12,809 nt of DNA from contig CAXTKV010000157.1 in assembly GCA_964244895.1 (NCBI GenBank), positions 1 through 12,809 of the forward strand, in the 5' to 3' direction. The position numbers were made by a program, and so were the translations under genes. The notes under the pieces were generated by a model. It was not told the DNA's origin. It was given only the letters and a program-made list of their open reading frames with translations, and made no database searches. How positions within the stretch are numbered: position 1 is the first letter of the stretch; each line of letters begins with the position of its first letter. Positions 1 to 12,809 of this stretch are shown here, piece by piece. This DNA comes from an uncultured Deinococcales bacterium (GTDB lineage Bacteria; Deinococcota; Deinococci; Deinococcales; JAAFIG01).

Positions 1-24
1 GAGAATACCGTTCCAGACGGTGCG
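1..24. repeat. Right part of a ~57-bp paired-palindrome element, truncated by the window start
   Basis: GAG-AATACCGTTC-C-AGACGGTGCG aligns with GAG-AATGGCGTCC-C-GGACGGTCTC at 10203-10226. Confidence 0.7.
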
Positions 25-48
25 TTGGATACAGCGCGGGTTTCGCGG

Positions 49-540
49 TCAGGGTTTGACGCGCGGGAATCTTTTGTCCAGCGCGCCGATCAGCGCGACC
101 TCGAGTTGGTTCGTGATGCTTTGCGGGTTCTCGTCCAGACCCTTTCCGGCCTCGGAGTCGGAGAAAGCGACCGCTGTTCGCGGTTGGGCATACCCTTCAA
201 TCGCAGAAACCAGGATCAGCACGTTCCGGGCGCGACCATCGATTTCTTCGCGCCACGGGGTTTCGCGCAGCGTGATCTGAAACAGATCCGAGTGGACGGG
301 TTCGAACTGCGTGTTCGCGACTTGCTCGAGTTTTGCATCTTTGAAAAAGAATTTGACTGGAAGATCGAAGTCGCGCACGAGCACGGGCGGATGGTTGAAG
401 CCTCGAACAAATTGGACGGAGAAAGCGGCGATTTCTTGCGCTTTGCCTTCCCAGATCATGTTCCCTAAATCGAGGTCATCCTGGGCTCGAGCCAGGCAAC
501 AGACCAGCAAGCAGGTCGCCAGCGCGTACAGAATTCGCAT
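49..540 (-). CDS. Hypothetical secreted protein (163 aa) with a Sec-type signal peptide
   Basis: N-terminus MRILYALATCLLVCCLARA|QDD has a basic residue, a hydrophobic core and an AxA site. A TAAACT box lies on the minus strand (547-552), 6 nt before the ATG at 540. No family recognised. Confidence 0.75.
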   Translation of the reverse strand: MRILYALATCLLVCCLARAQDDLDLGNMIWEGKAQEIAAFSVQFVRGFNHPPVLVRDFDLPVKFFFKDAKLEQVANTQFEPVHSDLFQITLRETPWREEIDGRARNVLILVSAIEGYAQPRTAVAFSDSEAGKGLDENPQSITNQLEVALIGALDKRFPRVKP

Positions 541-546
541 CGTTTC

Positions 547-552
547 AGTTTA
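547..552 (-). promoter_or_regulatory. -10 box (TAAACT) of a probable leaderless transcript
   Basis: Minus strand reads TAAACT-gaaacg-ATG with no Shine-Dalgarno. Same geometry as three other genes in the window. Confidence 0.65.
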
Positions 553-676
553 TGAAACCAGCTTCTTGAATTGTCCAGAAAGCCTTTTTCACGCGTACTG
601 GGGGGATTTGCGAGTTGCATCACTCGAAGAGTCGCCTGGGGCTTCTAACCCTACAGTCAGCGTGGGGCGCGCGGCG

Positions 677-682
677 TAAACT
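677..682 (+). promoter_or_regulatory. -10 box (TAAACT) of a probable leaderless transcript for the RNA methyltransferase
   Basis: TAAACT-gcgcgc-ATG(689), no Shine-Dalgarno. Confidence 0.65.
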
Positions 683-688
683 GCGCGC

Positions 689-1597
689 ATGACGCTCGAG
701 CCACAAGAATCAAGCGCCGAGAGGCCAGCCATCGTGCTCGTCTCGCCGAAAGAGGCGGGCAACGTCGGGAGCGTGGCGCGGGCCATGAAGAATTTCGGGT
801 TGATGGATTTGCGGATCGTCCAGCCGCGATTTCAGCTCGAGAAATCCTTGCTGATGGCCGTTCACGCCTTCGACGTGATCGAGGGCGCAAAAATCTTTGA
901 CACGCTCCTGGATGCCGTCGGTGGGTGCGAACTGGTGGCGGGCACGACCGCTCGGGGTCGGCGGGATCACGCGCCGCCGGTCGCGCTGCGCGAAGCTGCG
1001 CGGGGTTTCGCGGGCGTGCGCTCGAGCGCCGTGGTCTTCGGGCGCGAGGAACACGGGCTCTACAACGATGAACTCGATTTGTGCCACGTGCATATTCGCA
1101 TCCCGACGGATGCCGTGTATCCCAGCATGAATCTGGCGCAGGCCGTGCAGGTCGTGGTCTACGAGCTGATGATGGATCGCACCAACCCCGAACCGATTCC
1201 GGCGCGGGCTCCGGTGGCGGATCGGCGCGCGATGGAAGGCCTGTATGCGCACCTCTTGGAATTCATGCTCGAGGTCGGGTACACCGACCAATTCCGGCAG
1301 GATCACGCGCTCAGGCGCTTCCGGCAGATTTACGACCGCGCCCAATTGAACGCGCAGGACGTGGCCTTCGTGCGCGGGCTGGTCTCGCAGGGCTTGTGGG
1401 CATCCCGCAAGGCCAGGGGCTTGGGCGTGCCGGGCAGCGTGCCGTGGCCTCGAGAACCCCAGGACACCGCCCTTGCTCAACAGACGGCACCTGACGGGCC
1501 ACTCGCGCTTCTTGCTCCTGAAATGGCACCTGACGGGCCACTCGCGCTCCAGGACGATGAATCACAAGCGCCGTCCCAGACGGAGCTTTCGAAGTGA
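689..1597 (+). CDS. trmJ: TrmJ/LasT-family SPOUT tRNA/rRNA 2'-O-methyltransferase with a low-complexity C-terminal extension
   Basis: Family motifs VLVSPKEAGNVGSVARAMKNFG, AGTTAR, VVFGREEHGLYNDEL and IPT...YPSMNLAQAVQVVVYE, followed by the helical TrmJ C-terminal domain. Confidence 0.88.
   Translation: MTLEPQESSAERPAIVLVSPKEAGNVGSVARAMKNFGLMDLRIVQPRFQLEKSLLMAVHAFDVIEGAKIFDTLLDAVGGCELVAGTTARGRRDHAPPVALREAARGFAGVRSSAVVFGREEHGLYNDELDLCHVHIRIPTDAVYPSMNLAQAVQVVVYELMMDRTNPEPIPARAPVADRRAMEGLYAHLLEFMLEVGYTDQFRQDHALRRFRQIYDRAQLNAQDVAFVRGLVSQGLWASRKARGLGVPGSVPWPREPQDTALAQQTAPDGPLALLAPEMAPDGPLALQDDESQAPSQTELSK
1472..1548 (+). repeat. Two tandem in-frame 39-bp units in the methyltransferase tail (LAQQTAPDGPLAL / LAPEMAPDGPLAL)
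   Basis: The 24-mer GGCACCTGACGGGCCACTCGCGCT is identical at 1486-1509 and 1525-1548. CTTGCTC at 1472 and 1511 keeps the 39-bp period. Confidence 0.9.
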
Positions 1598-3483
1598 GCC
1601 AGACCCGAGAACTCGAGAAAGCACCGTTCGGCCTGGGTGCGCGATTGTTGGCTCCGCTGCGCACCGCTTTGAACGCGTTCGGGCTGCTGCGCCCGAACGC
1701 CGAACCGGGCGTGCTGTACCGCCGCGTGCGGCTGGCGCAGGTTTTTTTGCCGCCGTTGATCGCGCTGGTGGTGGTTTTTTACCAGTTGTACGTGGTGCGT
1801 CTGACCAGCCTGAGCGGCGCCTTCTGGGCTGAGTTGGGGTTTTACGGCATCATCGGGCCGATGGTGACGTACTACACCATCGGCTGGATCGGTGCGGAAG
1901 TGCGCGAGCGCGAGAAGGCCGAGGGCGATTTGCGCAACCTGTACCTGGAGCTTTCCGAATCGCACCGGCGGCTGGCGGCCATCCAGCGCGTCACCAAGCA
2001 GGTTTCGGAGGCCAACGACCTGGCCAGCACGGTCGAAACCGCTATCCGAGGATTGACCGAAGCGGTCGGGGCGACGGCGGGCGCGATCGCGCTCGAGAGC
2101 GGCATCGTGCGCACCGTCGGCATGGGTGACGCGCCGGTACCTCTGGAGGTTTTCGACCTCGAGCCCGTGAGAACCGGGTCTCAGACCCTGGAGAGGCCGT
2201 CCGGCTGGGCGGGCGCGACCAACCGATTGTCCGTGCCGCTCAGGTGGGGCGACCGTTTTCTGGGTGCGGTTCACGCGTACTTTCAGGGCATGCCGCGCCC
2301 GGAGGCCAAGGAACTTCTGGAAATCCTGGTCGGTGAACTGTCCGCCGCCATCGAAGCCACCGAGCACCGCACGCGCGACCTCCTGACGGTCTTCGAGGTG
2401 GATCGGAGCATCCGCGCCGAATCGAACCTGGAACGATTGCTCGAGGCCGTGCTGGGGCGCATCGGGACGCGCGTGAATGCGGCGGCGGCGGCGGTCTACC
2501 TGGCGGACGAGGGCGACCGTTTGACGCTCGCCTGGGGTCGGGACGTGCGCGGTGAGCGCGTGCGCGGCTACGAGGTCGGACGGCTGGCGCTTCAGGTCGC
2601 GCAGTCCAGAACGCCAGTCTTGCTGGACGATCTCGAGGCCGCACCGGAATTCGAAGGTGGGGCCGACCCGGTGCTCGAGGGTGCGCGTTCCGCGATCGGC
2701 CTGCCGATGCTGTCCGACACGGAACTGGTCGGGGTGATCGTGCTGGCGGACGAACGCCCGAACGCCTTCGACCCGAATGAGCGTCCGCTGCTGGGCTTGC
2801 TGGCCAACCAGGTCACGCTGGCGGTGCGCAACGCCCGCGCGTATCTGTACTCCGAGGAACTGGCGATTCTCGATGAACGCAACCGCATCGCCCGAGAGAT
2901 CCACGACGGTATCGCGCAGAGCCTGGCTTTCACGGCTCTGAAACTCGACCTGGCCGGACGGTTGCTGGGCAAGGACAACGAGCGCGTCAGGACGGAACTC
3001 GAGACCGCCAAGAACACGCTGCGCGAGCAGATCCGCGAGGTGCGCCGCTCGATCTTCGCGCTGCGCCCGATCGACCTCGAAAGGCTGGGTTTCCTGGAAG
3101 CCGTGCGTTTTTTCGTGCGCGATTTCGGCGAGCAGCACGGTATCCGCACCGAACTCGAGCAGATCGGGGAACCGATGCTGTCCCCGACCAACGAAGCCGT
3201 CGCTTTTCGCATCCTTCAAGAAGCCCTCAACAACGTCGCCAAGCATTCCAGGGCAAAAACCGCGCGGGTGATTCTGCGCTCCGACGATGGCGGTACGTCC
3301 CTGACCGTGCAGGACGACGGCGAGGGCTTCGACCCGGATGCCCTGACGGGCAAAGTCACCAGTGCGGGCGGTCTGGGCTTGCACCAGATGCGCGAACGCG
3401 TCGAATCGCGCGGTGGTCAGTTCGGGTTTTCCTCCGCGCGCGGTTCCGGAACCCGCGTCACGGCCAGCCTGCCGATAGGTTAG
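1594..3483 (+). CDS. Membrane-anchored sensor histidine kinase (2 TM, GAF, GAF, HisKA_3, HATPase_c; NarX/LiaS/DesK class)
   Basis: Two hydrophobic helices, GAF-type segments (LSVPLRWGDRFLGAV; SAIGLPMLSDTELVGVI), H-box ERNRIAREIHDGIAQ (His codon 2902-2904), N-box QEALNNVAKHS, G1 DDGEGFD and G2 GGLGLHQMRER. The GTG start overlaps the upstream stop (GTGA 1594-1597). Confidence 0.93.
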   Translation: MSQTRELEKAPFGLGARLLAPLRTALNAFGLLRPNAEPGVLYRRVRLAQVFLPPLIALVVVFYQLYVVRLTSLSGAFWAELGFYGIIGPMVTYYTIGWIGAEVREREKAEGDLRNLYLELSESHRRLAAIQRVTKQVSEANDLASTVETAIRGLTEAVGATAGAIALESGIVRTVGMGDAPVPLEVFDLEPVRTGSQTLERPSGWAGATNRLSVPLRWGDRFLGAVHAYFQGMPRPEAKELLEILVGELSAAIEATEHRTRDLLTVFEVDRSIRAESNLERLLEAVLGRIGTRVNAAAAAVYLADEGDRLTLAWGRDVRGERVRGYEVGRLALQVAQSRTPVLLDDLEAAPEFEGGADPVLEGARSAIGLPMLSDTELVGVIVLADERPNAFDPNERPLLGLLANQVTLAVRNARAYLYSEELAILDERNRIAREIHDGIAQSLAFTALKLDLAGRLLGKDNERVRTELETAKNTLREQIREVRRSIFALRPIDLERLGFLEAVRFFVRDFGEQHGIRTELEQIGEPMLSPTNEAVAFRILQEALNNVAKHSRAKTARVILRSDDGGTSLTVQDDGEGFDPDALTGKVTSAGGLGLHQMRERVESRGGQFGFSSARGSGTRVTASLPIG

Positions 3484-3537
3484 AACCGTCCAGCACGCCA
3501 TTTTTATATTCTCAAGAAGATTGTTCCAGACGGTGTT
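3482..3537. repeat. ~56-bp paired-palindrome intergenic element
   Basis: AGAACCGTCC-A-GCACGCCATT and AAGATTGTTC-C-AGACGGTGTT, centres 3492 and 3527, spacer contains CTCAAGAA. Overlaps the kinase stop codon. Confidence 0.75.
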
Positions 3538-3684
3538 CTTTGCGCATTGACGGCTGAATCGGATCGCCGTTCGTATCGGGCTCTCGAGCATCCGCGCAAT
3601 CCCAAGACTTTCAGGACAGCGTTTCGTTGCGCCCGCTGGGTTTCTCGAGCCCAATTCCTCATCGGCGGGCTCGCTCGGGCGTTG

Positions 3685-3700
3685 TATAATGCTCCAGAGG
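3685..3700 (+). promoter_or_regulatory. Consensus -10 (TATAAT) plus Shine-Dalgarno for the gene at 3707
   Basis: TATAAT at 3685-3690, AGAGG at 3696-3700, ATG at 3707. No clear -35. Confidence 0.55.
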
Positions 3701-3706
3701 CCATTC

Positions 3707-4090
3707 ATGAATGCACGAACCAACAGACTCCCGATCATCGTCGACGCCGTCTTGATCATGGAAACCCGCAATTCCAACGCGGGTTTGCGGACGCAAGCGT
3801 TCTCGGGTGGCTGGTCGAGGCTCTACCAGGCGGGCGATTACTACCTGGATCTGTCGTTCAAACCTGAATCCAAAACAGCCGTGCTGCTGGGGCGTTTGCT
3901 GCCGTCCGCACCCCAAGAGCGGCTCGAGGGTCGCGTGGAACTTCTTCCCGTCTCGGGTGGAGATGGTCTCGAGGCACCGCTGCATCCGTCCGGTGAGTTC
4001 CGTTTCGAGTGCAACACTTCCGGCGAGCACGCGCTGATGGTCGATTTGCAGGGCACGACCCTGCGCGTTCAACCGATCGAGATGAACTGA
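3707..4090 (+). CDS. Hypothetical 127-aa beta-strand-rich protein, possible partner of the CHAT protease
   Basis: RBS-supported ATG at 3707 (the ORF track extends to 3689). The pattern AVL..E...AGLR...SRLYQAGDYYLDL...LLGRLL...GEFRF...G.H.L suggests a transthyretin/carboxypeptidase-regulatory-like beta-sandwich (pattern recognition, not a search). Confidence 0.8.
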   Translation: MNARTNRLPIIVDAVLIMETRNSNAGLRTQAFSGGWSRLYQAGDYYLDLSFKPESKTAVLLGRLLPSAPQERLEGRVELLPVSGGDGLEAPLHPSGEFRFECNTSGEHALMVDLQGTTLRVQPIEMN

Positions 4091-4212
4091 GGGCACTCAG
4101 TCCAAAGAGCTTCTCGTCGAATTCCAAAAAACACCATCCAAGACGCCGAAATTCAAATGTCGGCTGCGAAATTCGGCTGGTATTATTTCCTGAATTTTTT
4201 CCAAGGCTGGCA

Positions 4213-4218
4213 TAGACT
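4213..4218 (+). promoter_or_regulatory. -10 box (TAGACT) of a probable leaderless transcript for the TPR-CHAT gene
   Basis: TAGACT-ttgaag-GTG(4225), with the GTG in frame with the CHAT ORF. Confidence 0.6.
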
Positions 4219-4224
4219 TTGAAG

Positions 4225-7107
4225 GTGACTGCGCGTCAAGACCCCGCCGTACCGTTCGAGGGTGTTGCCCTGATTAATCGGTTGCTGACCGCACCCGACG
4301 CGGCCTCACGGCTGGTATTGCTGCAGGATCGGGCGCTCGGGATTGACCTGATCGAAATCTTCAAACAAGAGGTCGAACGCGTGCGCGACACGGATGTCGC
4401 GCGCGCCGTGGCGGTCGGTGAGATCGCCACGGAGTTCGCAGAGCGCATCGGTACCCCCGACTCCCAGGCGCTGGCGTACTTCGCGCTGGGCTTGGCGCTC
4501 AACATCAACGGCGAGTTTGAACGGGCCTTCGAGGTGCTCGAGCAGGCGCGGGTGCTGTACCTGCAACTCGACCGGCAGGTTGACGCGGCCCGCGTGGCCA
4601 TCCGGCAATTGCAGGCGCTGGCCGTGACCGGACGCTACGAGGAAGCCCTCGAGCGCGGCAATCAGGCCGCTATGGTGCTGGAAACGCCCGGTTTTGAAAG
4701 CGAGTACGGGCGCTTGATGAACAACATCGGCAACATCAACCAGTACCTGGGGCGATTTGAACCCGCCGAGATCGCGCTGGAACGCGCCCGCCGCACGATG
4801 GTCGCGGTCGGCGATCCGATCGGGCTGGCGCAATCGCACGTCAGTTCCGGCAAGCTCTACGCCGCGCACGACCGCTTCCGCGAGGCCTTAGAGCACTATC
4901 AGACGGGATTGGAACTCTTCACGACGTTCGATCAGACGCGTTCCGTGGCGGGCACGAACACGCTGGTGGCGGCCTTATTTCAGCGCCAGGGCCGGTTGGC
5001 GCTGTCGCTCGAGCGCCTGAGCCGCGCCCGGCAGATGTTCGCGGATCTGGGCTTACCGGTCGATGCGGCGCAGGCGCAACTCGAGGAGGTTCGGGTTCGC
5101 AACGAACTCAACCTGATCGACGAAACCGAACCGATGGCCAAGGAAATCATCGAGGTTTTCCGGTCGCGCAGCATGATGCTCGATCTGGCCGAGGCGCTTT
5201 TTGAACTGGGCACGTCGCGCGCCAGGGCGCAACAGCCCGACGCGGCCCGAGAAACCCTGGAAGAATCCCGCCAGGCCTGGCTCGAGATCGGCAACGGCAC
5301 GCAAGCCGCGCTGGTCGAAGTCTCGATGGCGGCGCTGGATCTTTCGAGCGATGACCCCAAAGTGCTCGAATCCGCCCGCCAGCGCGCCGCCCAGGCCGCC
5401 GAAAAGCTCGAGCGCGCCGGGGCGCGCTCCGCGCTGGCCTTCGCGCTGTTGATCCTGGCCGAAGTCCAGAGCGCCCTGGAATTGAAGGACGATTCGATCC
5501 GAACCTTGGAGCGAGCCGATGCGATCGCGCATGAACTGAACGTGCCCGACCTGATCGTGCAGACGACCTGGCGCTTGGGTCGCGCCAGCATGGAGCAGGG
5601 CCATGCCATGAAGGCCGAATCGCGCTTCCGCGAGGTGATCGCCCAACTCGAGCAGGTGCGCGCCAGCCTGTCGGTGGACGATTTCAAGAGCGCCTACCTG
5701 GAAGACAAACTGGCCGTGTACGGCGACCTGGTAAGCTTGTTGATCGACCAGCAGCGCACCAGAGAAGCGCTCGATTTCGCCGAGCGCGCCAAATCCAGGG
5801 CGTTGCTCGATCAGCTTTCCCGGAACCTCGAGACGGACGATTCTGCCGCCGACCCGGAAATCGTGCGCCTCGAAGAGCGTCTGAGCCAGGTTCGTCGCGA
5901 CCTGAACGCGTCCTTCATGCGCTCCGAGGTCGAACGCGAGGCGACATCGACGCGCGGAGCCAGCCTGGATCGCGTGCTGGAACTCGAGCGGGAAGTCACC
6001 GAACTGATCCGCGAACTCGAACGCCGCCGGGTGGTGGCCGAACCCGAAGAAACGAGCGCGAACCCCGTCGATCTGCTCGCGACCATCGAACCGGGCGCGA
6101 CGCTGATCGAATACTTCGAGGTCGGCGATGAACTGATCGCTTTCGTCGCCGAAGACGCTCAGGTTCGCGCCGTGCGCGGCCTGATGCCCGACGCCGAGGT
6201 GCGCCACCGTCTGGAACGCCTCGAGTTCATCTTCGCGCGGGTGGCCAACCCCGGCCCTTACGCCGCCGTGTACACCCCAGAAGTCCTGCGCAAGCAGGTG
6301 GACGGGTTGCTCGAGGAGCTTTTTGACGGGTTGATCGCGCCGCTCGACCTGAAGCTCGAAGGGAAAAAGTTGATCGTCGTGCCGCACGGGGCGCTGTCCG
6401 CCGTGCCGTTCTCGGCCTTGAAATCCGGCGACGCGTACCTGATCGACCGCGCCCGGATCTCGCTCGCGCCCAGCCTGGCCGTTTACGCTGCCTGCACGGC
6501 CAGAGAATCCAGCCCGTCCACGACGGTCGCGGCTTTCGGCATTCCCAGCAAGGAAATTCCCGCCGTGGCCGAAGAGGTTCGCAGCGTCGCCCGCGTGTTC
6601 CCCGGCGGTCGCGCTTTCGTCGGCGAGGAAGCCAGCTTCGCGGCCTTTTTCGAGTTCGCGCCCGAAGCCAGCGTGCTGCACATCGCCACCCACGGCGCGT
6701 TCCGACCCGACAACCCGATGTTCTCCGGGCTGAAACTGGCCGATGGCTGGTTGTCCGCCCGCGATTTGTACCGTTTGCGTTTGCGCGGTTCGTTGACGGT
6801 GCTGTCCGCCTGCGAATCCGGCCTGGGTGCATCATCCGGCGGCGAGGTGCTGGGCTTGGCGCGCGGATTTCTGCACGCGGGCGCGCCCGCGCTGGTGGTC
6901 AGTTTGTGGCCCGTCCAGGACGAACAGACCGCCCTTTTGATGACCGCTTTCTACACCGGTTTGCACGCCGGACAGACCGTGGCCGACGCCATGCGCGGCG
7001 CGCAACTCGAGCTTCGCGCGCAGCACGACAATCCCTACCACTGGGGCGCGTTCACCGTCACCGGCGATCCGAACCGCACCGCCATGCTCAGTTCCGCGAA
7101 AGCCTGA
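4225..7107 (+). CDS. TPR-repeat CHAT-domain (caspase/separase-like, clan CD) cysteine protease, ~960 aa
   Basis: N-terminal TPR-like helical repeats (NNIGNINQYLGRFEPA etc.), ALDFAERAKSRALLD, LIVVPHGALSAVPFSAL, catalytic LHIATHG (His codon 6691-6693) and VLSACESG (Cys codon 6811-6813), VVSLWPVQD and HDNPYHWGAF. GTG 4225 is preferred over TTG 4219 because of the -10 spacing. Confidence 0.93.
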   Translation: MTARQDPAVPFEGVALINRLLTAPDAASRLVLLQDRALGIDLIEIFKQEVERVRDTDVARAVAVGEIATEFAERIGTPDSQALAYFALGLALNINGEFERAFEVLEQARVLYLQLDRQVDAARVAIRQLQALAVTGRYEEALERGNQAAMVLETPGFESEYGRLMNNIGNINQYLGRFEPAEIALERARRTMVAVGDPIGLAQSHVSSGKLYAAHDRFREALEHYQTGLELFTTFDQTRSVAGTNTLVAALFQRQGRLALSLERLSRARQMFADLGLPVDAAQAQLEEVRVRNELNLIDETEPMAKEIIEVFRSRSMMLDLAEALFELGTSRARAQQPDAARETLEESRQAWLEIGNGTQAALVEVSMAALDLSSDDPKVLESARQRAAQAAEKLERAGARSALAFALLILAEVQSALELKDDSIRTLERADAIAHELNVPDLIVQTTWRLGRASMEQGHAMKAESRFREVIAQLEQVRASLSVDDFKSAYLEDKLAVYGDLVSLLIDQQRTREALDFAERAKSRALLDQLSRNLETDDSAADPEIVRLEERLSQVRRDLNASFMRSEVEREATSTRGASLDRVLELEREVTELIRELERRRVVAEPEETSANPVDLLATIEPGATLIEYFEVGDELIAFVAEDAQVRAVRGLMPDAEVRHRLERLEFIFARVANPGPYAAVYTPEVLRKQVDGLLEELFDGLIAPLDLKLEGKKLIVVPHGALSAVPFSALKSGDAYLIDRARISLAPSLAVYAACTARESSPSTTVAAFGIPSKEIPAVAEEVRSVARVFPGGRAFVGEEASFAAFFEFAPEASVLHIATHGAFRPDNPMFSGLKLADGWLSARDLYRLRLRGSLTVLSACESGLGASSGGEVLGLARGFLHAGAPALVVSLWPVQDEQTALLMTAFYTGLHAGQTVADAMRGAQLELRAQHDNPYHWGAFTVTGDPNRTAMLSSAKA

Positions 7108-7152
7108 ACACCGTCCAGCACGCGTCCACGAAACACTGTCCTGAACGGTGTT
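7107..7152. repeat. Paired palindrome, short form (centres 25 bp apart)
   Basis: AACACCGTCC-A-GCACGCGTCC (centre 7117) and AACACTGTCC-T-GAACGGTGTT (centre 7142). Begins in the CHAT stop codon. Confidence 0.8.
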
Positions 7153-7294
7153 CCTCGTGCCCCGTTCGCTGTGGCACGGTTCCAACGGCCACGAACGCCT
7201 GGAGCGTTTTTCACTACGGTTTTAACGCCTCCCAAAAGACGGGTCGCGGGCGAACCTCCGTGCTAAACGCTCTTGTTTTCACTCGCACAGCTCG

Positions 7295-7325
7295 AAAAGT
7301 GTTTGCAAAGGGCGCAAACACTTTT
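7295..7325. promoter_or_regulatory. Perfect 12-bp AT-rich inverted repeat; operator or terminator-like
   Basis: AAAAGTGTTTGC (7295-7306), 7-nt loop, GCAAACACTTTT (7314-7325). Covers the expected -35 position of the phhB promoter. Confidence 0.55.
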
Positions 7326-7336
7326 GAAAAATGCTC

Positions 7337-7342
7337 TAGATT
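7337..7342 (+). promoter_or_regulatory. -10 box (TAGATT) of a probable leaderless phhB transcript
   Basis: TAGATT-gaaggt-ATG(7349). Confidence 0.6.
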
Positions 7343-7348
7343 GAAGGT

Positions 7349-7630
7349 ATGAGCAAAGCCCTGGACGACCAGCAGATCCAAGCCAAACTTCAGACCGTTC
7401 CCGGTTGGGCGCTCGAGGACGCGCAACTGGCGCGCACCTTCAGCTTTGCCAGTTACGCCGATGGCGTGGCCTTCGCCGTCAAGGTTGGCATGCTCTCCGA
7501 GAAGCTCGATCATCACCCGGACGCACTTTCGATCACCTGGAAGAAAGTTCGCGTGGCCTACGTCACCCACAGCGCGGGCGGTATCACGGAACTGGATTTT
7601 GACGCGGCGCTGAAGGTGTCTGGCCTGTAA
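7349..7630 (+). CDS. phhB: Pterin-4-alpha-carbinolamine dehydratase (4a-hydroxytetrahydrobiopterin dehydratase)
   Basis: 93 aa with PGW...LARTFSFASY, EKLDHHPD and VTHSAGGITELDF signature motifs. Confidence 0.93.
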   Translation: MSKALDDQQIQAKLQTVPGWALEDAQLARTFSFASYADGVAFAVKVGMLSEKLDHHPDALSITWKKVRVAYVTHSAGGITELDFDAALKVSGL

Positions 7631-7651
7631 AACACCGTTCAGTACGGCGTT
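7631..7651. repeat. Single copy of the 21-bp palindrome directly after the phhB stop
   Basis: AACACCGTTC-A-GTACGGCGTT. Confidence 0.75.
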
Positions 7652-7661
7652 CCTGATCTTG

Positions 7662-7733
7662 TCCCCCACTGCTTTAGTAGAGGAGAGGTGGCTCGAGACC
7701 GCCCGGTGTTGGCTGCCTCGAGCCGGAAGGGTC
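7662..7733. repeat. Double-hairpin intergenic element, second family (degenerate copy)
   Basis: TCCCCCACT..AGTAGAGGA hairpin, GAGGTG, GGCTCGAG..CTCGAGCC hairpin, CGGAAGGGTC. Same layout as 10097-10156. Confidence 0.55.
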
Positions 7734-7832
7734 GGTGTGCGGCGACCTCTTCGGCTCGAGGCCACCGCATCAGCCAACGCGCCTCGGCCTTTGGGCGGAG
7801 GACGCGCCCGGATTTCGCGCGTAACCTGACGT

Positions 7833-7912
7833 GGGAACAAAACGGTTCGGCTCGAGGACAAAACGTTCCGGTTCGGCTCGAGGACAAAACGTTCCGGCTC
7901 GGGAACAAAACG
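7833..7912 (+). repeat. Short direct-repeat cluster upstream of the efflux operon
   Basis: ACAAAACG at 7837, 7858, 7884 and 7905. Exact 26-bp tandem duplication CGGTTCGGCTCGAGGACAAAACGTTC at 7843-7868 and 7869-7894. Confidence 0.88.
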
Positions 7913-7946
7913 ATCGAGGTCGCGTAAGGGAAACCAAGGGGGTTCA

Positions 7947-9149
7947 ATGAGGAACGTTTTACGCAGGATTTGGATACCGATCCTGGTGCTGGCGCTCGGC
8001 GGGGTCGTCTGGAGCGTGGCGAGGCCCAAACCGGACCCTGGGCTCGAGATCAACATCGCCAGGGCCACGGCGGGCGAGTTCGTGCGTCAAGTGCGCGCCA
8101 ACGGCAGCGTGGACGCGCGCGTCTACAACCTGAACTTTCCGCGCTCTGGACGCGTGGCGCGCGTGCTGGTCAAGGAAGGTCAGGTGGTCGCGGTGGGCGC
8201 GCTGCTGGCGGAACTCGACACCACGGACGATACGGTCAAACTGACCAGCGCCAAGGCGAACCTGGCGGCGACCATCACGCAACTGGGCGCGCAGGGCAAC
8301 GAGACGGACGCGAACCGCGCCAAAATCCAGTCGCAACTCGAGGCGGCCAGAGGGAAACTCGCATCGGCGCAGAAGCTCGCGGCGGTCGGTGGCGTCTCGA
8401 GGAACGAACTTCAGGACGCGATCCGGGCGGTCAACGACCTGGAATCGCAAGTGCAGATTCAGTCCTCGCAGTCCACCACCTCGCAATCCACGCTCCAGGC
8501 CACCCGATCCGCGCGTCAGGCCGAGATCGCGGCGCTCGAGCGCAGCATCAGCCTGGCGCAACTGCGTTCGCCGGTGGGCGGCACGGTCTCCAAGGTGGAT
8601 TTCCTGGCGGGCACCGAGGCGGGCGCGGGCATCGTTCGGGTCGTGGAAAGCCGCACGCTGGAATTCCGCGCCAAGCTGGCGGAGGCCGACATTCCCGGTT
8701 TGAGCGTCGGGCAACCCGCACTGATCGTGCTCGATTCCGCGCCGGGCACGCCCCTGCAAGCCAAGGTCTCCAGGCTGTCCGTTCAGGCCGAAGTCTCCGT
8801 TCAGGGCGGCAGCGCGATCCTGCCCGTGATCCTGAAATTCACCGATGCCAACGCGCCCCGACTGGCTCGCCCCGGACTGACCGCTTCGGCGCGGATCACG
8901 ACTCTGCGCATCGAGGACGCCGTGATGATTCCGCTCGAGACGCTGCTGGAGGAACAGGGCAAAAGCTCCGTCTGGCTGGTGGATCAAACCAGTAAGACCG
9001 TCAAGAAAACACCCGTCACGATTCGCGCCCGCAACCTGACGCAAGCTGCCGTGAAGGGCGTTCCCGACGGCGCAATCCTGGTTTCTTTGCCGCCTGAAGC
9101 CCTCAAGGACGGCCAGAAGGTGCAGTACGCGCTCGAGAAGGGCAAGTGA
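7947..9149 (+). CDS. Efflux periplasmic adaptor / membrane fusion protein (MacA/HlyD family)
   Basis: N-terminal TM anchor, lipoyl-like halves SGRVARVLVKEGQVVAVGALLAELD and LRSPVGGTVSKV flanking a coiled coil, LARPGLTASARI. Shine-Dalgarno AAGGGGG at 7936-7942. Confidence 0.9.
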   Translation: MRNVLRRIWIPILVLALGGVVWSVARPKPDPGLEINIARATAGEFVRQVRANGSVDARVYNLNFPRSGRVARVLVKEGQVVAVGALLAELDTTDDTVKLTSAKANLAATITQLGAQGNETDANRAKIQSQLEAARGKLASAQKLAAVGGVSRNELQDAIRAVNDLESQVQIQSSQSTTSQSTLQATRSARQAEIAALERSISLAQLRSPVGGTVSKVDFLAGTEAGAGIVRVVESRTLEFRAKLAEADIPGLSVGQPALIVLDSAPGTPLQAKVSRLSVQAEVSVQGGSAILPVILKFTDANAPRLARPGLTASARITTLRIEDAVMIPLETLLEEQGKSSVWLVDQTSKTVKKTPVTIRARNLTQAAVKGVPDGAILVSLPPEALKDGQKVQYALEKGK

Positions 9150-9167
9150 TGAAGGTCGTGTGCCAGG

Positions 9168-9226
9168 GAACACCGTCCAAGATGCTATTCTCGAGGATAC
9201 GATTTTTTGCGTCTGGGACGGTGTTC
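9168..9226. repeat. ~57-bp paired-palindrome element (opposite orientation to the copy at 10170)
   Basis: GAACACCGTCCAAGATGC and GCGTCTGGGACGGTGTTC form a 16/18 inverted repeat. Centres 9179 and 9215, spacer contains ATTCTCGAG. Confidence 0.88.
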
Positions 9227-9315
9227 GAGGTGGCCACAAGCCGTGAGCCGCAGGCTCGCGGCCTGCGACGAGTCTTCTTTCCAGACCTCGCCGCGCCAGA
9301 CCGGGAGATTTCCTG

Positions 9316-10029
9316 ATGCCCTCCGTCCTCGAGATGCGCGGCATCACCAAGATTTACCGTTCGGGCACGAACCAGCGCACGGTCGAGGTGCAAGCCTTGC
9401 AGGGCGTGAATCTGGCCATCAATTCCGGCGAGTACGTGGCGATCATGGGGCCATCAGGTTCCGGTAAATCCACGCTGATGCACATCATCGGGTTGCTGGA
9501 CAGCCCCACGAACGGTTCCTACCAGCTCGGCGGCGACGAGGTCTCGGGCCTGAAGGATTCCGAACTGGCGCGCATCCGCAATCACCGCGTGGGCTTCGTG
9601 TTCCAGGCGTTCTTCTTGCTGCCGCGCCTGACGGCCCTGCGCAACGTGGCCTTGCCACTCGTGTACCGCGGCACGCCCGCCCGAGAACGCACCAGACGCG
9701 CTCAGGTCGCGCTGGAAAGCGTCGGATTGGGCAACCGCATGGATCATTTGCCGACGGAACTTTCAGGCGGTCAGAAGCAGCGCGTGGCGGTCGCTCGGGC
9801 GCTGGTGCAGGAACCGGACATTCTGCTGGCGGACGAACCGACCGGCAACCTGGATTCGCAGAGCACCCTGGAAGTCCTGGAACTCTTCGATAACCTGCAC
9901 CGCCAGGGAAAAACGATCATCATGGTCACCCACGAACCCGACGTGGCCGCCCACGCCGAACGCGTCGTGCGCCTGAAAGACGGGTTGGTCGTGTCAGACG
10001 AACGCCAGGGCAAGGGGGCGATGGCGTGA
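9316..10029 (+). CDS. ABC transporter ATP-binding protein (MacB/LolD/FtsE-like)
   Basis: Walker [11 protein letters not shown]-loop GFVFQAF, signature [15 protein letters not shown], Walker [14 protein letters not shown]-loop VTHE. GGAG RBS upstream. Confidence 0.96.
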
Positions 10030-10038
10030 GAGAGGTCC

Positions 10039-10066
10039 TCAGAAATCAGAGGTCAGCAGTCAGAGG
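10039..10066 (+). repeat. Four tandem heptamers TCAG(A/C)NN
   Basis: TCAGAAA TCAGAGG TCAGCAG TCAGAGG. Confidence 0.7.
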
Positions 10067-10096
10067 CCAACTTCTCGAGCCTCAAGATGCTCTCGT

Positions 10097-10156
10097 CCTC
10101 CCCTGCGAAGGAGGGGAGGTGTCATCCTCGCGCTGTTCGAGGATGACGGAGGGGTC
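10097..10156. repeat. Double-hairpin intergenic element, second family
   Basis: CCTCCCCT/AGGGGAGG (10097-10119) and GTCATCCTCG/CGAGGATGAC (10121-10147) are perfect stems, followed by GGAGGGGTC. Confidence 0.8.
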
Positions 10157-10169
10157 GCTCGCGCAAGAG

Positions 10170-10226
10170 AACACCGTCCTACACGGTTTTTTCTTGAATC
10201 TCGAGAATGGCGTCCCGGACGGTCTC
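10170..10226. repeat. ~57-bp paired-palindrome element
   Basis: AACACCGTCC-T-ACACGGTTTT and AATGGCGTCC-C-GGACGGTCTC, centres 10180 and 10216. The internal TTCTTGAATCTCGAGAA is identical to the last 17 nt of the window. Confidence 0.85.
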
Positions 10227-10246
10227 CTCGAGAAGGGGGTGAGGGC

Positions 10247-11449
10247 GTGACGCTCGAGAACATCCGCATCGCGCTGGAATCGCTCTGGGGCAACAAGCTG
10301 CGCAGCTTCCTGGCGCTGTTGGGCATCGTGATCGGCGTGTTCGCGGTCACGACCATGATTTCGTTGGGTCAGATCGCGCAGGTGGGCATCACGCGCGATC
10401 TGGAGAGCGTGGCGGGCAGATCCGTGTTCGTGCAGCCGAACTTCAACGGTGGTCAGGACGCCAGCACCGCGCCGATTCGCGAGGCCGACTTGCGGGCGCT
10501 CGAGCCGTTCCCGGTCGGGCTGGTGCCGCAGATTTTCACCAGCGCGCAGTACGAATCGCGCCCCGGAGAGCGGCGCAGCGTGACCTTGCAGGGCACGCCC
10601 GGTGACTTGCCCAGGCTCGACCCGACGAACAAGCTGGCGAAGGGACGCTACTTCACGACCTCGGAGGCGAACGGTGGGTTGGCGGTCGCGGTCTTATCCA
10701 ACAGCGCCGCCAAGGACTTGATCCCGCGCGGCGACCCGATCGGGCGCACGGTTCGTCTGTACCTGAATTCCGGTCAGCGCGTCGAATTGACCGTGGTGGG
10801 CGTGCTGGAAGCGCCGCCCGGATTGTTCGGCGGTTTCGGCGGTTCCACGGTCTACGCGCCGAACCCGTTCGTGTGGGCGTCCGGCGAGGGTCGGCGCGGC
10901 GAGTACACCTTCGTGACCATGATCCTGCGGCCCGGCGTTCAGGCCGCCGAGATTCAACGCCAGGTGACGCGACTCTTCGAGGGGCGTTACGGCAAGGACA
11001 AGTACCAGATTTCCAGCACGGAATCCTTCCAGGGCACGCTCAGTTCGATCACCACGGCCCTTCAGGCGCTGCTGGCGGCGATTGCGGCGCTCTCCTTGCT
11101 GGTCGGCGGCATCGGCATCATGAACATCATGCTGGTGTCCGTCACCGAACGCACCCGAGAGATCGGCCTGCGCAAGGCGCTCGGCGCGACCAACGGCTTG
11201 ATCCGCCAGCAGTTCCTGATCGAGGCGGTCGTGCTGACCGTGATCGGCGGTCTGATCGGCGTGATCACGGCGGTCGGGTTGCTGCTGGTGGTGGTGGCCA
11301 TCGTGCCGTTCTTCAAGACGTTTATCCTCGCGCCCTCGACGGTCATGTTGGCGCTCGGTGTGAGCATTTTCATCGGGCTGGTGTTCGGGGTTCTACCCGC
11401 CGCTCGCGCCTCGCGGCTTCACCCGATAGAAGCCCTGCGTTACGAGTGA
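10247..11449 (+). CDS. ABC transporter permease (MacB/FtsX family, 4 TM with periplasmic domain)
   Basis: NKLRSFLALLGIVIGVFAV, LLVGGIGIMNIMLVSVTERTREIGLRKALGA, QQFLIEA and PAARASRLHPIEALRYE. Confidence 0.96.
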   Translation: MTLENIRIALESLWGNKLRSFLALLGIVIGVFAVTTMISLGQIAQVGITRDLESVAGRSVFVQPNFNGGQDASTAPIREADLRALEPFPVGLVPQIFTSAQYESRPGERRSVTLQGTPGDLPRLDPTNKLAKGRYFTTSEANGGLAVAVLSNSAAKDLIPRGDPIGRTVRLYLNSGQRVELTVVGVLEAPPGLFGGFGGSTVYAPNPFVWASGEGRRGEYTFVTMILRPGVQAAEIQRQVTRLFEGRYGKDKYQISSTESFQGTLSSITTALQALLAAIAALSLLVGGIGIMNIMLVSVTERTREIGLRKALGATNGLIRQQFLIEAVVLTVIGGLIGVITAVGLLLVVVAIVPFFKTFILAPSTVMLALGVSIFIGLVFGVLPAARASRLHPIEALRYE

Positions 11450-11456
11450 TTCTACC

Positions 11457-11502
11457 AGCACCGTCCTGGACGCGAATTAAAGAATGCGTCCAGGACGGTC
11501 TT
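11457..11502. repeat. Paired palindrome, short form; perfect 14-bp stem between convergent genes, possibly a bidirectional terminator or 3' stabiliser
   Basis: ACCGTCCTGGACGC (11460-11473), 12-nt loop, GCGTCCAGGACGGT (11486-11499). Centres 11467 and 11492. Confidence 0.85.
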
Positions 11503-11587
11503 CTCGAGGGTCGAATCCGATGCTCGAGTAATCGTGTGAGGGCCGAACCCGACCCTTCTCTCGAGACGCGTTCGACCGCGCTCGAGC

Positions 11588-12658
11588 TTATTTCTTGAGC
11601 TTCGTCCAGACCTTGTCGCGCAAATCCGTGGCCTTCTGCGAGCAGATCTGGTTCGGGCGGAAACGCTTGGTCATCTCGGGCGGCGTGGTCACGGCGGGAT
11701 CGGATTTCAGGGCGGCATCGAAGAACGCGCTCGAGCCGTTGATGCTGTTGTTGTAACCCGTGAAATTGCTGGCAGCGGCGATGTTTTTGGGTTCCATCAT
11801 CCACTGGATGAATCTGATCGCGCCCGCCTTGTTCTTGGCGGTGGTGGGTACGGCCAGGTTGTCGTTCCAGAACGGCAAGCCCTCTTTGGGGTAGACGAAC
11901 ACGGCGGTTTTGAGCTTTTCCTTGGTTCGATGCGCCGCGCCGTTCCACTGGTGGTGCATGATGACTTCTTTGGCCTGCATGCGTTCGATGGTTCCGTCAC
12001 TGTTGTAGGTCGCCACGAACGGTTTTTGCTTGACCAGCACGGCCAGCACGCGTTCAGCCTGCTTGGGATCCTCGATGCACTGCGGCAAGCCGAGGTAGTA
12101 CGCGGCGGCGCTGAACAGGTCGTTCTGGTCGTTCAGGTCAGCGATCTGGCCTTTCAATTCCGGGATCGGCTCGAAGAAGCTCTTCCAGGAATCAGGCAGC
12201 TTGCCGCCGGGAACTCGAGCCGAATCGTAGGTGAAGCCCGTCACGCCCCACATGTACGGCGCGCTGAACTCGCGTTTCGGGTCGAAGGGCGGTTTCTGGC
12301 TGAAATCCGCGACGTTCTTCCACTGCGGGAAGCCGGCTGGGTTGATGCGCTCGAGAATCTTTTCGCCGATCATGATTTTCACCATGTAATCGGACGGCAC
12401 GATCACGTCGTAGCCCGCCGCGCCCGCCTTGAGCTTCGCCAGCAGGGATTCGTTCGAGTCGTAGACGTCCAGGTTGACCTTGATGCCGGTTTCCTTCTCG
12501 AAGGTTTTCAGCAACTCGGGCGGAATGTAGTTCGACCAGTTGTACAGGTTGATTTCGCTGGCTTGCGCCTGCACGTTCTGCGAGAGCGCGAAACCTGCCG
12601 CTGCCGCACCCAGAGCGAGCGCCCCACCGACCCACACGAGTTTCTTCGGTACGTTCAT
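11588..12658 (-). CDS. potD: Spermidine/putrescine ABC transporter substrate-binding protein (PotD/PotF family)
   Basis: Signal peptide, INLYNWSNYIPPELLKTFEKETGIKV, YDSNESLLAKL, YDVIVPSDYMV, PYMWGVTG and YPKEGLPFWNDNLAVP. Shine-Dalgarno AAGGAGG at 12664-12670 on the minus strand. Confidence 0.9.
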   Translation of the reverse strand: MNVPKKLVWVGGALALGAAAAGFALSQNVQAQASEINLYNWSNYIPPELLKTFEKETGIKVNLDVYDSNESLLAKLKAGAAGYDVIVPSDYMVKIMIGEKILERINPAGFPQWKNVADFSQKPPFDPKREFSAPYMWGVTGFTYDSARVPGGKLPDSWKSFFEPIPELKGQIADLNDQNDLFSAAAYYLGLPQCIEDPKQAERVLAVLVKQKPFVATYNSDGTIERMQAKEVIMHHQWNGAAHRTKEKLKTAVFVYPKEGLPFWNDNLAVPTTAKNKAGAIRFIQWMMEPKNIAAASNFTGYNNSINGSSAFFDAALKSDPAVTTPPEMTKRFRPNQICSQKATDLRDKVWTKLKK

Positions 12659-12772
12659 GACTGCCTCCTTGTGCCTCGAGGGTTCGAGGTGTGCGCGATG
12701 CGATCCGGTGGTCGATGAACTGTTGAACTCGAGGTGGCGAGAATGGGTGTGGGTGCTCGAGACTGACGCGAA

Positions 12773-12809
12773 AAGACTGTTCTGGACAGCGTTTCTTGAA
12801 TCTCGAGAA
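12773..12809. repeat. Left part of a ~57-bp paired-palindrome element, truncated by the window end
   Basis: AAGACTGTTC-T-GGACAGCGTT followed by TCTTGAATCTCGAGAA, matching 10170-10207. Confidence 0.8.

Follow-up and report, generated by a model that had tools for sequence, protein, structure and literature searches.

What is the 21-bp palindrome that recurs in almost every intergenic gap of a 12,809-nucleotide stretch of DNA from an uncultured Deinococcales bacterium? This stretch (CAXTKV010000157.1, or contig C157; hereafter the window) comes from a 5.12-Mb, 328-contig genome (G000) that is 91% complete and has 62.7% G+C, and its ten genes are ordinary. The names of homologs and the taxa matched indicate Deinococcota. 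The original prediction, made from the letters of the window, listed 15 copies and offered two explanations: a lineage-specific family resembling repetitive extragenic palindromes (REPs), REP doublets forming hairpins (REPINs) or miniature inverted-repeat transposable elements (MITEs), or an abundant binding site for a dimeric DNA-binding protein.

All 15 listed centres aligned to the consensus without any shift (offset 0), carrying 2-8 mismatches each, and 3 of the 15 had ≤3 mismatches compared to none in 200 shuffles. A matrix built from the whole genome accepted 14 of the 15 copies at ≥14 bits, the exception (centre 3613) consisting of a right half only. The count of nine gaps in ten with a copy held, and in gap 541-688, none of the three scored centres (575-577) corresponded to a copy. 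The proposed palindromic consensus is a dyad, but its halves are not used alike: half-sites come in two types, A [(G)AACACCGTCC] and B (RAWWYGCGTSC). Of the 15 copies, ten are arranged as five pairs with spacings of 35, 25, 36, 36, and 25 bp, and a sixth pair, overlooked when it was stated that no copy lies inside a credible coding sequence, is located within the 3' end of the SpoU-methylase gene.

Helically phased pairs of palindromes throughout the genome

In the whole genome, 82, 153, 312, 495, and 792 copies matched the consensus with 0, 1, 2, 3, and 4 mismatches, respectively (1,834 within 4), compared to none at ≤3 mismatches and 0-5 each at 4 mismatches for eight permuted palindromes in the same genome. 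A matrix scan returned 4,537 sites of ≥14 bits in 5.1 Mb versus 78 in a scaled order-5 Markov control; because the genome itself served to train the matrix, significance is carried by the controls and not by the site count. The family is real and far above chance. Relative to 4,310 genes called by a custom caller (79% coding), 4,265 of the 4,537 site centres (94%) were non-coding, which is a 60-fold difference in density compared to coding DNA. The sites group into 2,770 units (1,726 pairs, 1,024 singles, and 20 larger units of three or four sites) with a median unit-to-unit distance of 1,412 bp. Units occupied 464 of 578 convergent, 1,389 of 2,396 tandem, and 340 of 604 divergent gaps, and in tandem gaps they lay a median of 37 bp from the stop codon compared to 110 bp from the next start.

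Spacing within pairs is quantised. Distances of 25, 26, 35, or 36 bp account for 1,601 of the 1,726 pairs (768, 120, 521, and 192, respectively), with 23 and 13 pairs at 30 and 31 bp and 15 at 41 bp. At a 12-bit threshold, the A arms of the main classes point outward and the B arms inward (665 of 816 at 25 bp), and the reverse arrangement leads at 31 bp (8 of 17). In the short class, mean spacing increases by ≈0.4 bp per inner A-type arm (24.99, 25.44, and 25.86 bp). The spacers are A/T-rich (45% G+C) and keep their length, and nearly all differ in sequence (562 distinct of 564 at 35 bp; 215 of 215 at 36 bp). Information is distributed unevenly along the site, with 2.1-2.3 bits at positions -7, -3, and +3 and 0.3-1.0 bits at -8. 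Near 658 strong sites scored as single, 288 of 333 weak neighbours were found at 25, 26, or 34-36 bp; many singles are pairs whose partner has decayed at a standard distance. Likewise, weak sites within genes formed 52 pairs at 25, 26, 30, and 34-36 bp compared to about one at most other distances. The unit is a helically phased pair, not a single palindrome.

Units are also spread evenly. Their number per gap is under-dispersed (variance/mean of 0.27-0.55), such that among gaps of 300-450 bp, 318 held one unit, 46 held two, and 1 held more, compared to Poisson expectations of 163, 76, and 30. The 65 intragenic units lie in longer site-free intervals (median of 2,968 versus 2,276 bp; p = 9e-6). 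By contrast with a median of 0.97 sites per kb, 27 contigs totalling 419 kb (C5, C15, C36, C50, and others) are nearly site-free (<0.3 per kb), including the RepA-encoding contig C15 (0.05 per kb). Site density could be a useful marker of plasmids, recent transfers, or contigs that were misbinned.

Among the genomes searched, the family is confined to one genus-level lineage. At ≤2 mismatches, 35 of 40 relatives had no copy and 5 had one; a second pattern gave 655 matches in G000 versus 1 across 18 family genomes; the relative G006 contained 1 site at 20 bits in 2.5 Mb; and six relatives, sampled at 5-100 kb each, showed no analogous dyad. An exact scan of 185,579 species, possibly not including G000 and its nearest genomes, returned one lone match, and viral contigs contained 7 lone exact matches and no pairs. 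A true congener (L091), among at least 120 stretches that matched in a loose-pattern metagenome scan, is 76-87% identical to contig C273 and has kept a 25-bp pair in place with unchanged outer arms; at a second locus it has a single site where G000 has a weak, longer arrangement. A relative in run X1 (hereafter X1) retains the window's 3492/3527 pair with place and spacing unchanged. The differences listed, whose assignment to its contig was inferred from depth sums, number 0 for the left site, and affect 3 positions of the right site's inner arm and 4 of the 14-bp spacer. In-place retention in congeners rests on these two cases. The predicted lineage-specific, intergenic family near stop codons was thus borne out by the genome counts, the scans of relatives, and the stop distances.

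Hairpin tests and phased flanking DNA

We asked whether the palindromes behave as hairpins or as duplex sites. Covariation is given as kappa only; the z values there count each pair twice. In a positive control of 97 REPs of the same genome bearing a GTAG tag, stem positions covaried with kappa of 0.80-0.94, whereas the arms within the 21-bp site do not covary (kappa ≤0.09). Between the two sites of 35/36-bp pairs, kappa was mostly near 0, reaching 0.23-0.27 at single positions, and real and arm-swapped 35/36-bp pairs folded alike (-23.6 versus -23.7 and -25.5 versus -25.6 kcal/mol; 190 each). We found no fixed GTAG/CGTC tag in 5,527 outer flanks, CGTC occurring inside the palindrome and not at its end. 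Target-site duplication was not found for k = 2-8 at 81 offset pairs (1,721 pairs and 1,016 singles; best z ≈3.5, no consistent offset). The homogeneity of DDE-type MITEs was missing, since the spacers are nearly all distinct, and self-matches of ≥80% revealed no multicopy transposase in an assembly where repeats may be collapsed. Direct-repeat (Cas1-like) duplication was dismissed because direct covariation was missing in the 25- and 35/36-bp classes.

The REP-associated tyrosine transposase (RAYT) domain PF01797 (Y1 HUH) was not found in the 91% complete G000; 16 of the 18 family genomes have it. Despite the lack of a detectable Y1 transposase, G000 retains about 100 classical REPs with a GTAG tag and stems that covary. 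A missing RAYT is therefore weak evidence, because true REPs in this genome also lack a detectable one. The proposed membership in the REP/REPIN or MITE families was not upheld, in that tag, stem covariation, and target duplication were each tested for and not found, and no RAYT was detected in the 91% complete genome. Because the tag and stem tests failed, the family should not be filed as REP, and by the features tested it is not one. The approach shows that hairpin repeats and duplex sites are separable when true REPs of the same genome serve as the control.

The likeness to REPs is nevertheless considerable. REPs, bacterial interspersed mosaic elements (BIMEs), and REPINs, associated with RAYT (TnpA-REP), are described as 20-40-bp intergenic palindromes of up to thousands of copies, arranged as inverted dimers with linkers near stop codons; they are targets for other mobile DNA, and in E. 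coli, IHF, PolI, and gyrase bind to them (PMC3733652, PMC3333891, PMC8266576). The 21-bp family resembles them in being a multicopy palindrome in the 20-40-bp range, in its intergenic place, copy number, inverted pairing, and proximity to stops, and as a target of mobile DNA. Unlike them, it has no terminal GTAG/CGTC tag, no compensatory stems, and no RAYT that we could find; its linkers step by the helical turn, and its flanks are periodic and appear remodelled. Neither Deinococcus nor Thermus is mentioned in the main text of PMC3733652, although its supplements could list further families. We found no published description of the 21-bp family in a literature search that is unreliable by sequence and missed most subscription journals.

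The flanking DNA is phased with the sites. Measured from the centre of the outer site, AA/TT dinucleotides showed maxima at ≈17, 29, 42, 53, and 65 bp, with a period of 11.3-12 bp out to ≈80 bp in both coding and non-coding flanks. The amplitude (0.0176) was more than 4 times that of the largest of 20 jittered controls (≤0.0039), compared to 0.0011 around 5,884 CTCGAG anchor flanks, and the pattern was not seen when the flanks were anchored on stop codons. Over the whole genome, AA/TT periodicity at 11-11.5 bp has roughly double the strength seen in G006 (0.013 versus 0.006).

We compared the flanks to those of site-free G006 by mapping 1,183 orthologs (median identity of 64.5%; 2.5 of 5.09 Mb used). 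An independent template, derived from 2,892 flanks without an aligned base and tested on 538 aligned flanks, gave a slope of 0.76±0.18 here compared to 0.16±0.17 in the orthologous codons of G006; at changed residues, the slopes were 1.03 and 0.13, respectively. Stop codons that abut a unit were TAA in 44 of 81 genes compared to 20 of the 81 orthologs, and TAA use in other genes was unchanged (196 of 689 versus 194 of 689 orthologs). Gene truncation by insertion was rejected, since C-terminal tails were unchanged (130 abutting versus 733 distant orthologs; p = 0.22). The slopes and the TAA counts favour the interpretation that neighbouring codons and stops were remodelled after the sites appeared.

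We lean, with modest confidence, towards the interpretation that the paired palindromes are docking sites on duplex DNA for a dimer of dimers that bends the DNA. A protein complex on duplex DNA would be the simplest account because of the helical steps in spacing, the twist-compensating arm types, the uneven conservation, the lack of stem covariation, the phased flanks, and the even spread. Of the options first offered, a site for a dimeric DNA-binding protein fits best, except that the unit is a phased pair in place of a single palindrome. Each palindrome would bind one dimer, and the two dimers would make contact only at allowed helical rotations; the complex would be abundant and would put a bend in the A/T-rich spacer, with ≈80 bp to either side wrapped or interwound, and its long occupancy would have remodelled the neighbouring codons and stop codons. 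A likely role would be to divide the chromosome into topological units of ≈1.4 kb (loop or plectoneme apices), mostly just behind genes. Sites were probably gained in two ways, within short gap-opening insertions and by substitution in place. A more ambitious version, which we put forward tentatively and which may well claim too much, is a sequence-positioned chromatin in one genus, where the complex would sit on ≈2,800 paired sites ≈1.4 kb apart, each with ≈200 bp wrapped or interwound, strongly enough to have rewritten neighbouring amino acids and stop codons since the split from the sister genus. Thousands of phased, even sites in one genome would offer a direct test of whether a bound protein causes the bacterial 11-bp A-tract period.

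Among known systems, matS/MatP, SlmA, and Noc sites and parS are palindromic duplex sites for dimers or dimers of dimers that shape the nucleoid; they number in the tens and mark regions, compared to the ≈2,800 units found here over all site-rich contigs. Bacterial nucleoid proteins mostly bind with low specificity. The E. coli gyrase motif and the BIME-2 gyrase sites combine a central block with two periodic arms of ≈50 bp downstream of genes, and the motif is degenerate with a period of 10.75 (PMC6379681). By contrast, the unit described here is a strict paired palindrome with a period of 11.3-12 bp and longer arms. By analogy, the element may still act like gyrase- or IHF-bound BIMEs.

Points against a docking site and competing explanations

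Several results weigh against the docking-site interpretation. No binding protein was found by profile searches of G000 or in candidate lists from codon usage and synteny with G006. An expression proxy was unrelated to the sites (0.72-0.80 over the bins), and the under-dispersion would be partly built in if a unit itself made its gap. A first flank test gave a signal in G006 as well (0.0073±0.0025), which we discounted because the phase was taken from the same bases, so that noise was shared with the template. The sites could also target pre-bent DNA, one distant outgroup having been compared. Of 31 gaps that are tight in G006 and contain a pair in G000, 30 were widened by >40 bp, compared to 16 of 81 tight gaps without a unit. 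Finally, the 25-bp class behaves differently from the 35/36-bp class: its two sites show inverted covariation (kappa of 0.21-0.25 at five positions), it folds slightly better than arm-swapped pairs (-26.7 versus -25.3 kcal/mol; p = 0.056), and 58 of its 768 units have a near-identical copy elsewhere compared to 3.3 in a null that broke left-right coupling. These copies sit in unrelated flanks, and their 54 near-identical pairings include three exactly identical 46-mers at unrelated loci. Covariation, folding, and near-identical copies together point to hairpin conversion or whole-unit copying in the 25-bp class. Hairpin-templated repair or whole-unit copying may therefore act on this class, and convergence on the consensus may also contribute.

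The gap widening, the covariation in the 25-bp class, and the identical 46-mers speak for a REP/REPIN- or MITE-like mobile hairpin, in which a 46-bp AB-BA unit is copied as folded single-stranded DNA by an HUH-type enzyme that was lost or is unassembled, and the other spacing classes have decayed or recombined. Occupancy that is highest in convergent gaps and the indels that adjoin sites in congeners (+45 bp and ≈31 bp) agree with such an element, and the missing RAYT counts little, given that GTAG REPs persist without one. Nevertheless, we consider a mobile hairpin unlikely. Besides the lack of a tag, of a target duplication, and of arm covariation within sites or in 35/36-bp pairs, it leaves the helical quantisation with unrelated spacers and the apparent remodelling of flanks and stops to be explained, and some sites arose inside conserved genes without indels. 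Alignments with G006 are ungapped at a 38-bit site (C34), at a 33-bit site (C78), and across an entire 36-bp pair (C80), and other intragenic sites, such as one in C289, lie in residues that are extra compared to G006. The widening of pair-holding tight gaps implies that insertion matters in site gain, and part of the gap-widening DNA belongs to other repeats. In the window, the HlyD and ABC-ATPase genes are 166 bp apart, and they touch or overlap in all three relatives that carry the operon.

A DNA uptake signal spread by molecular drive, where the uptake machine grips the pair and the kinked spacer is fed through the pore, would explain why the copies number in the thousands, are spread evenly, and were gained in permissive places, also within genes. 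Traits of uptake sequences are present: the sites are abundant, even, and scarce in acquired DNA (the RepA- and integrase-bearing contigs), and competence genes, including one of the ComEC family, occur in G000. DNA uptake sequences (DUS) of Neisseria are signals of 10-12 bases and are non-palindromic. Neisserial DUS and the uptake signal sequences (USS) of Pasteurellaceae are, like the family described here, lineage-specific, present in thousands, often in close inverted pairs, in permissive locations, and absent from recently acquired DNA; unlike the case here, a single copy suffices in Neisseria and the pairs serve as terminators (PMC2397512). In G000, the pairs have no U-tract polarity (see below), the sites are 94% non-coding and palindromic, and no dialect of the signal was seen in the 5-100 kb sampled from each of six relatives. 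An uptake signal thus seems to us distinctly unlikely.

Recombination or nicking sites of the tyrosine recombinase type, with 10-11-bp arms, a 7-bp overlap, and a cut at G(-4)/T(-3), are suggested by the dyad with its variable, asymmetric centre, by spacer and inner bases that diverge more than the surrounding DNA in two comparisons with congeners, and by a second repeat. This repeat is a self-nesting hairpin mini-element of 39 bp that we found in 16 of 16 family genomes; on site-rich contigs, each of its 25 primary insertions splits the 21-bp site at a single bond, G(-4)/T(-3). Such splitting at a fixed bond is new here. Of the 55 strict right ends of the mini-element, 25 are at site cores, 24 are tandem joins, 1 is at the end of a contig, and the remaining 5 are in other targets, each on a site-poor contig; 32 of 34 left ends lacked an upstream partner. 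The right ends hit the outer arm of the pair in 24 of 25 cases; the A arms on offer numbered 2,961 outer and 651 inner. The right end resembles a B half-site, and therefore the insert may leave a usable site. The bond lies outside the site's loop. Against recombination sites, the mini-element inserts before T in all targets, including those in site-free relatives, where other repeats are used. Furthermore, no site array was found within 1.5 kb of the six best of 11 integrase matches in G000 (9 over cutoff), and thousands of live sites would be expected to rearrange the genome, yet synteny between the window and X1 extends over 668-6633. We regard recombination sites as very improbable.

RNA-level elements (terminators or mRNA-stabilising hairpins) would suit self-complementary sequences just past stop codons, and are the least credible of the explanations, since the transcribed strand showed no preference for G-U over A-C (339 versus 380, 362 versus 383, 438 versus 400, and 143 versus 140), T-rich tails showed no polarity (91 downstream versus 83 antisense in 1,041 pairs) of the kind found at intrinsic terminators, unit polarity was independent of transcription direction, more than half of divergent gaps are occupied, and the element had no Rfam match.

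Candidate proteins and the sites of the window

Several proteins of G000 were considered as binding factors or mobilisers. The one GIY-YIG match lies in a 610-aa protein that by eye resembles UvrC; the single, weak DUF559 match has no site array; the four ParB and six AsnC matches could not be tied to the sites; and the IS110 family (PF02371), whose recombinase a dRS3/IS110-type target would require, was not found in the 91% complete genome. A basic, 159-aa protein encoded at C258:1094-1573 (L273) has a lysine-rich tail and a strong codon bias, and looks highly expressed. It had no Pfam or Foldseek match and gave weak, winged-helix-like matches (best Z of 4.3). We rejected it as the cognate factor, because its conservation in 12 of 18 site-free family genomes implies that it does not track the motif. 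The protein has weak Deinococcus homologs and, judged from its sequence, is possibly an undescribed nucleoid protein. The lists from codon usage and G006 synteny contained no better candidate among the matches listed. G000 also encodes three HU-family paralogs (C10, C103, and C117; L278-L280) and a GyrA of ordinary length (815 aa; 75% identical to that of G006).

The sites of the window, to which no strand is assigned, illustrate the family. A site at the contig start (4..24; 20.8 bits), whose partner could lie beyond the contig, is followed by the pair in the 3' end of the SpoU-methylase gene. One member of this pair is split (1463..1561; arm 1463-1469, remainder 1548-1561, centre 1551) between G(-4) and T(-3) by two tandem, in-frame copies of the 39-bp mini-element on the + strand (1470-1508 and 1509-1547; family D9) and scores 18.3 bits once rejoined. 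In the X1-run relative, 21 letters replace window 1463-1549 and the insert is missing, which is the uninterrupted state. The overlooked partner lies at 1567..1587 (15.3 bits) with a 26-bp spacing. The 35-bp pair at 3482-3502 and 3517-3537 (21.2 and 29.3 bits) overlaps the histidine-kinase stop codon and is followed by the degenerate site at 3603..3623, of which the right half alone is recognisable (half scores of -8.0/+10.1) and where 49 other letters replace 3603-3606 in X1, and by a single weak site at 4130..4150 (15.2 bits). A 25-bp pair (7107-7127 and 7132-7152; 17.7 and 28.9 bits) overlaps the stop codon of the TPR-CHAT gene, and a single site (7631..7651; 25.0 bits) adjoins that of the pterin dehydratase gene. 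Two 36-bp pairs follow, one in the 166 bp that separate the HlyD gene from the ABC-ATPase gene (9169..9225; 25.1 and 19.7 bits) and one between the ABC-ATPase and MacB-type permease genes (10170..10226; 32.4 and 24.4 bits). A 25-bp AB-BA pair lies between convergent genes (11457..11502; 24.6 and 33.2 bits), and a last site (12773..12793; 25.7 bits) is located at the contig end.

Other repeats occur beside the sites. CTCGAG is the commonest hexamer in G000 (21,883 copies), occurs at 3-8 per kb in every family genome sampled, and adjoins 13% of outer arms; in this it resembles cyanobacterial HIP1. A separate hairpin repeat at window 10094-10160 contains words that recur 20-35 times in intergenic DNA, and X1 differs from the window across 10030-10166. 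Upstream of the HlyD operon, window 7843-7915 holds three tandem copies of a 21-26-bp unit (family D5).

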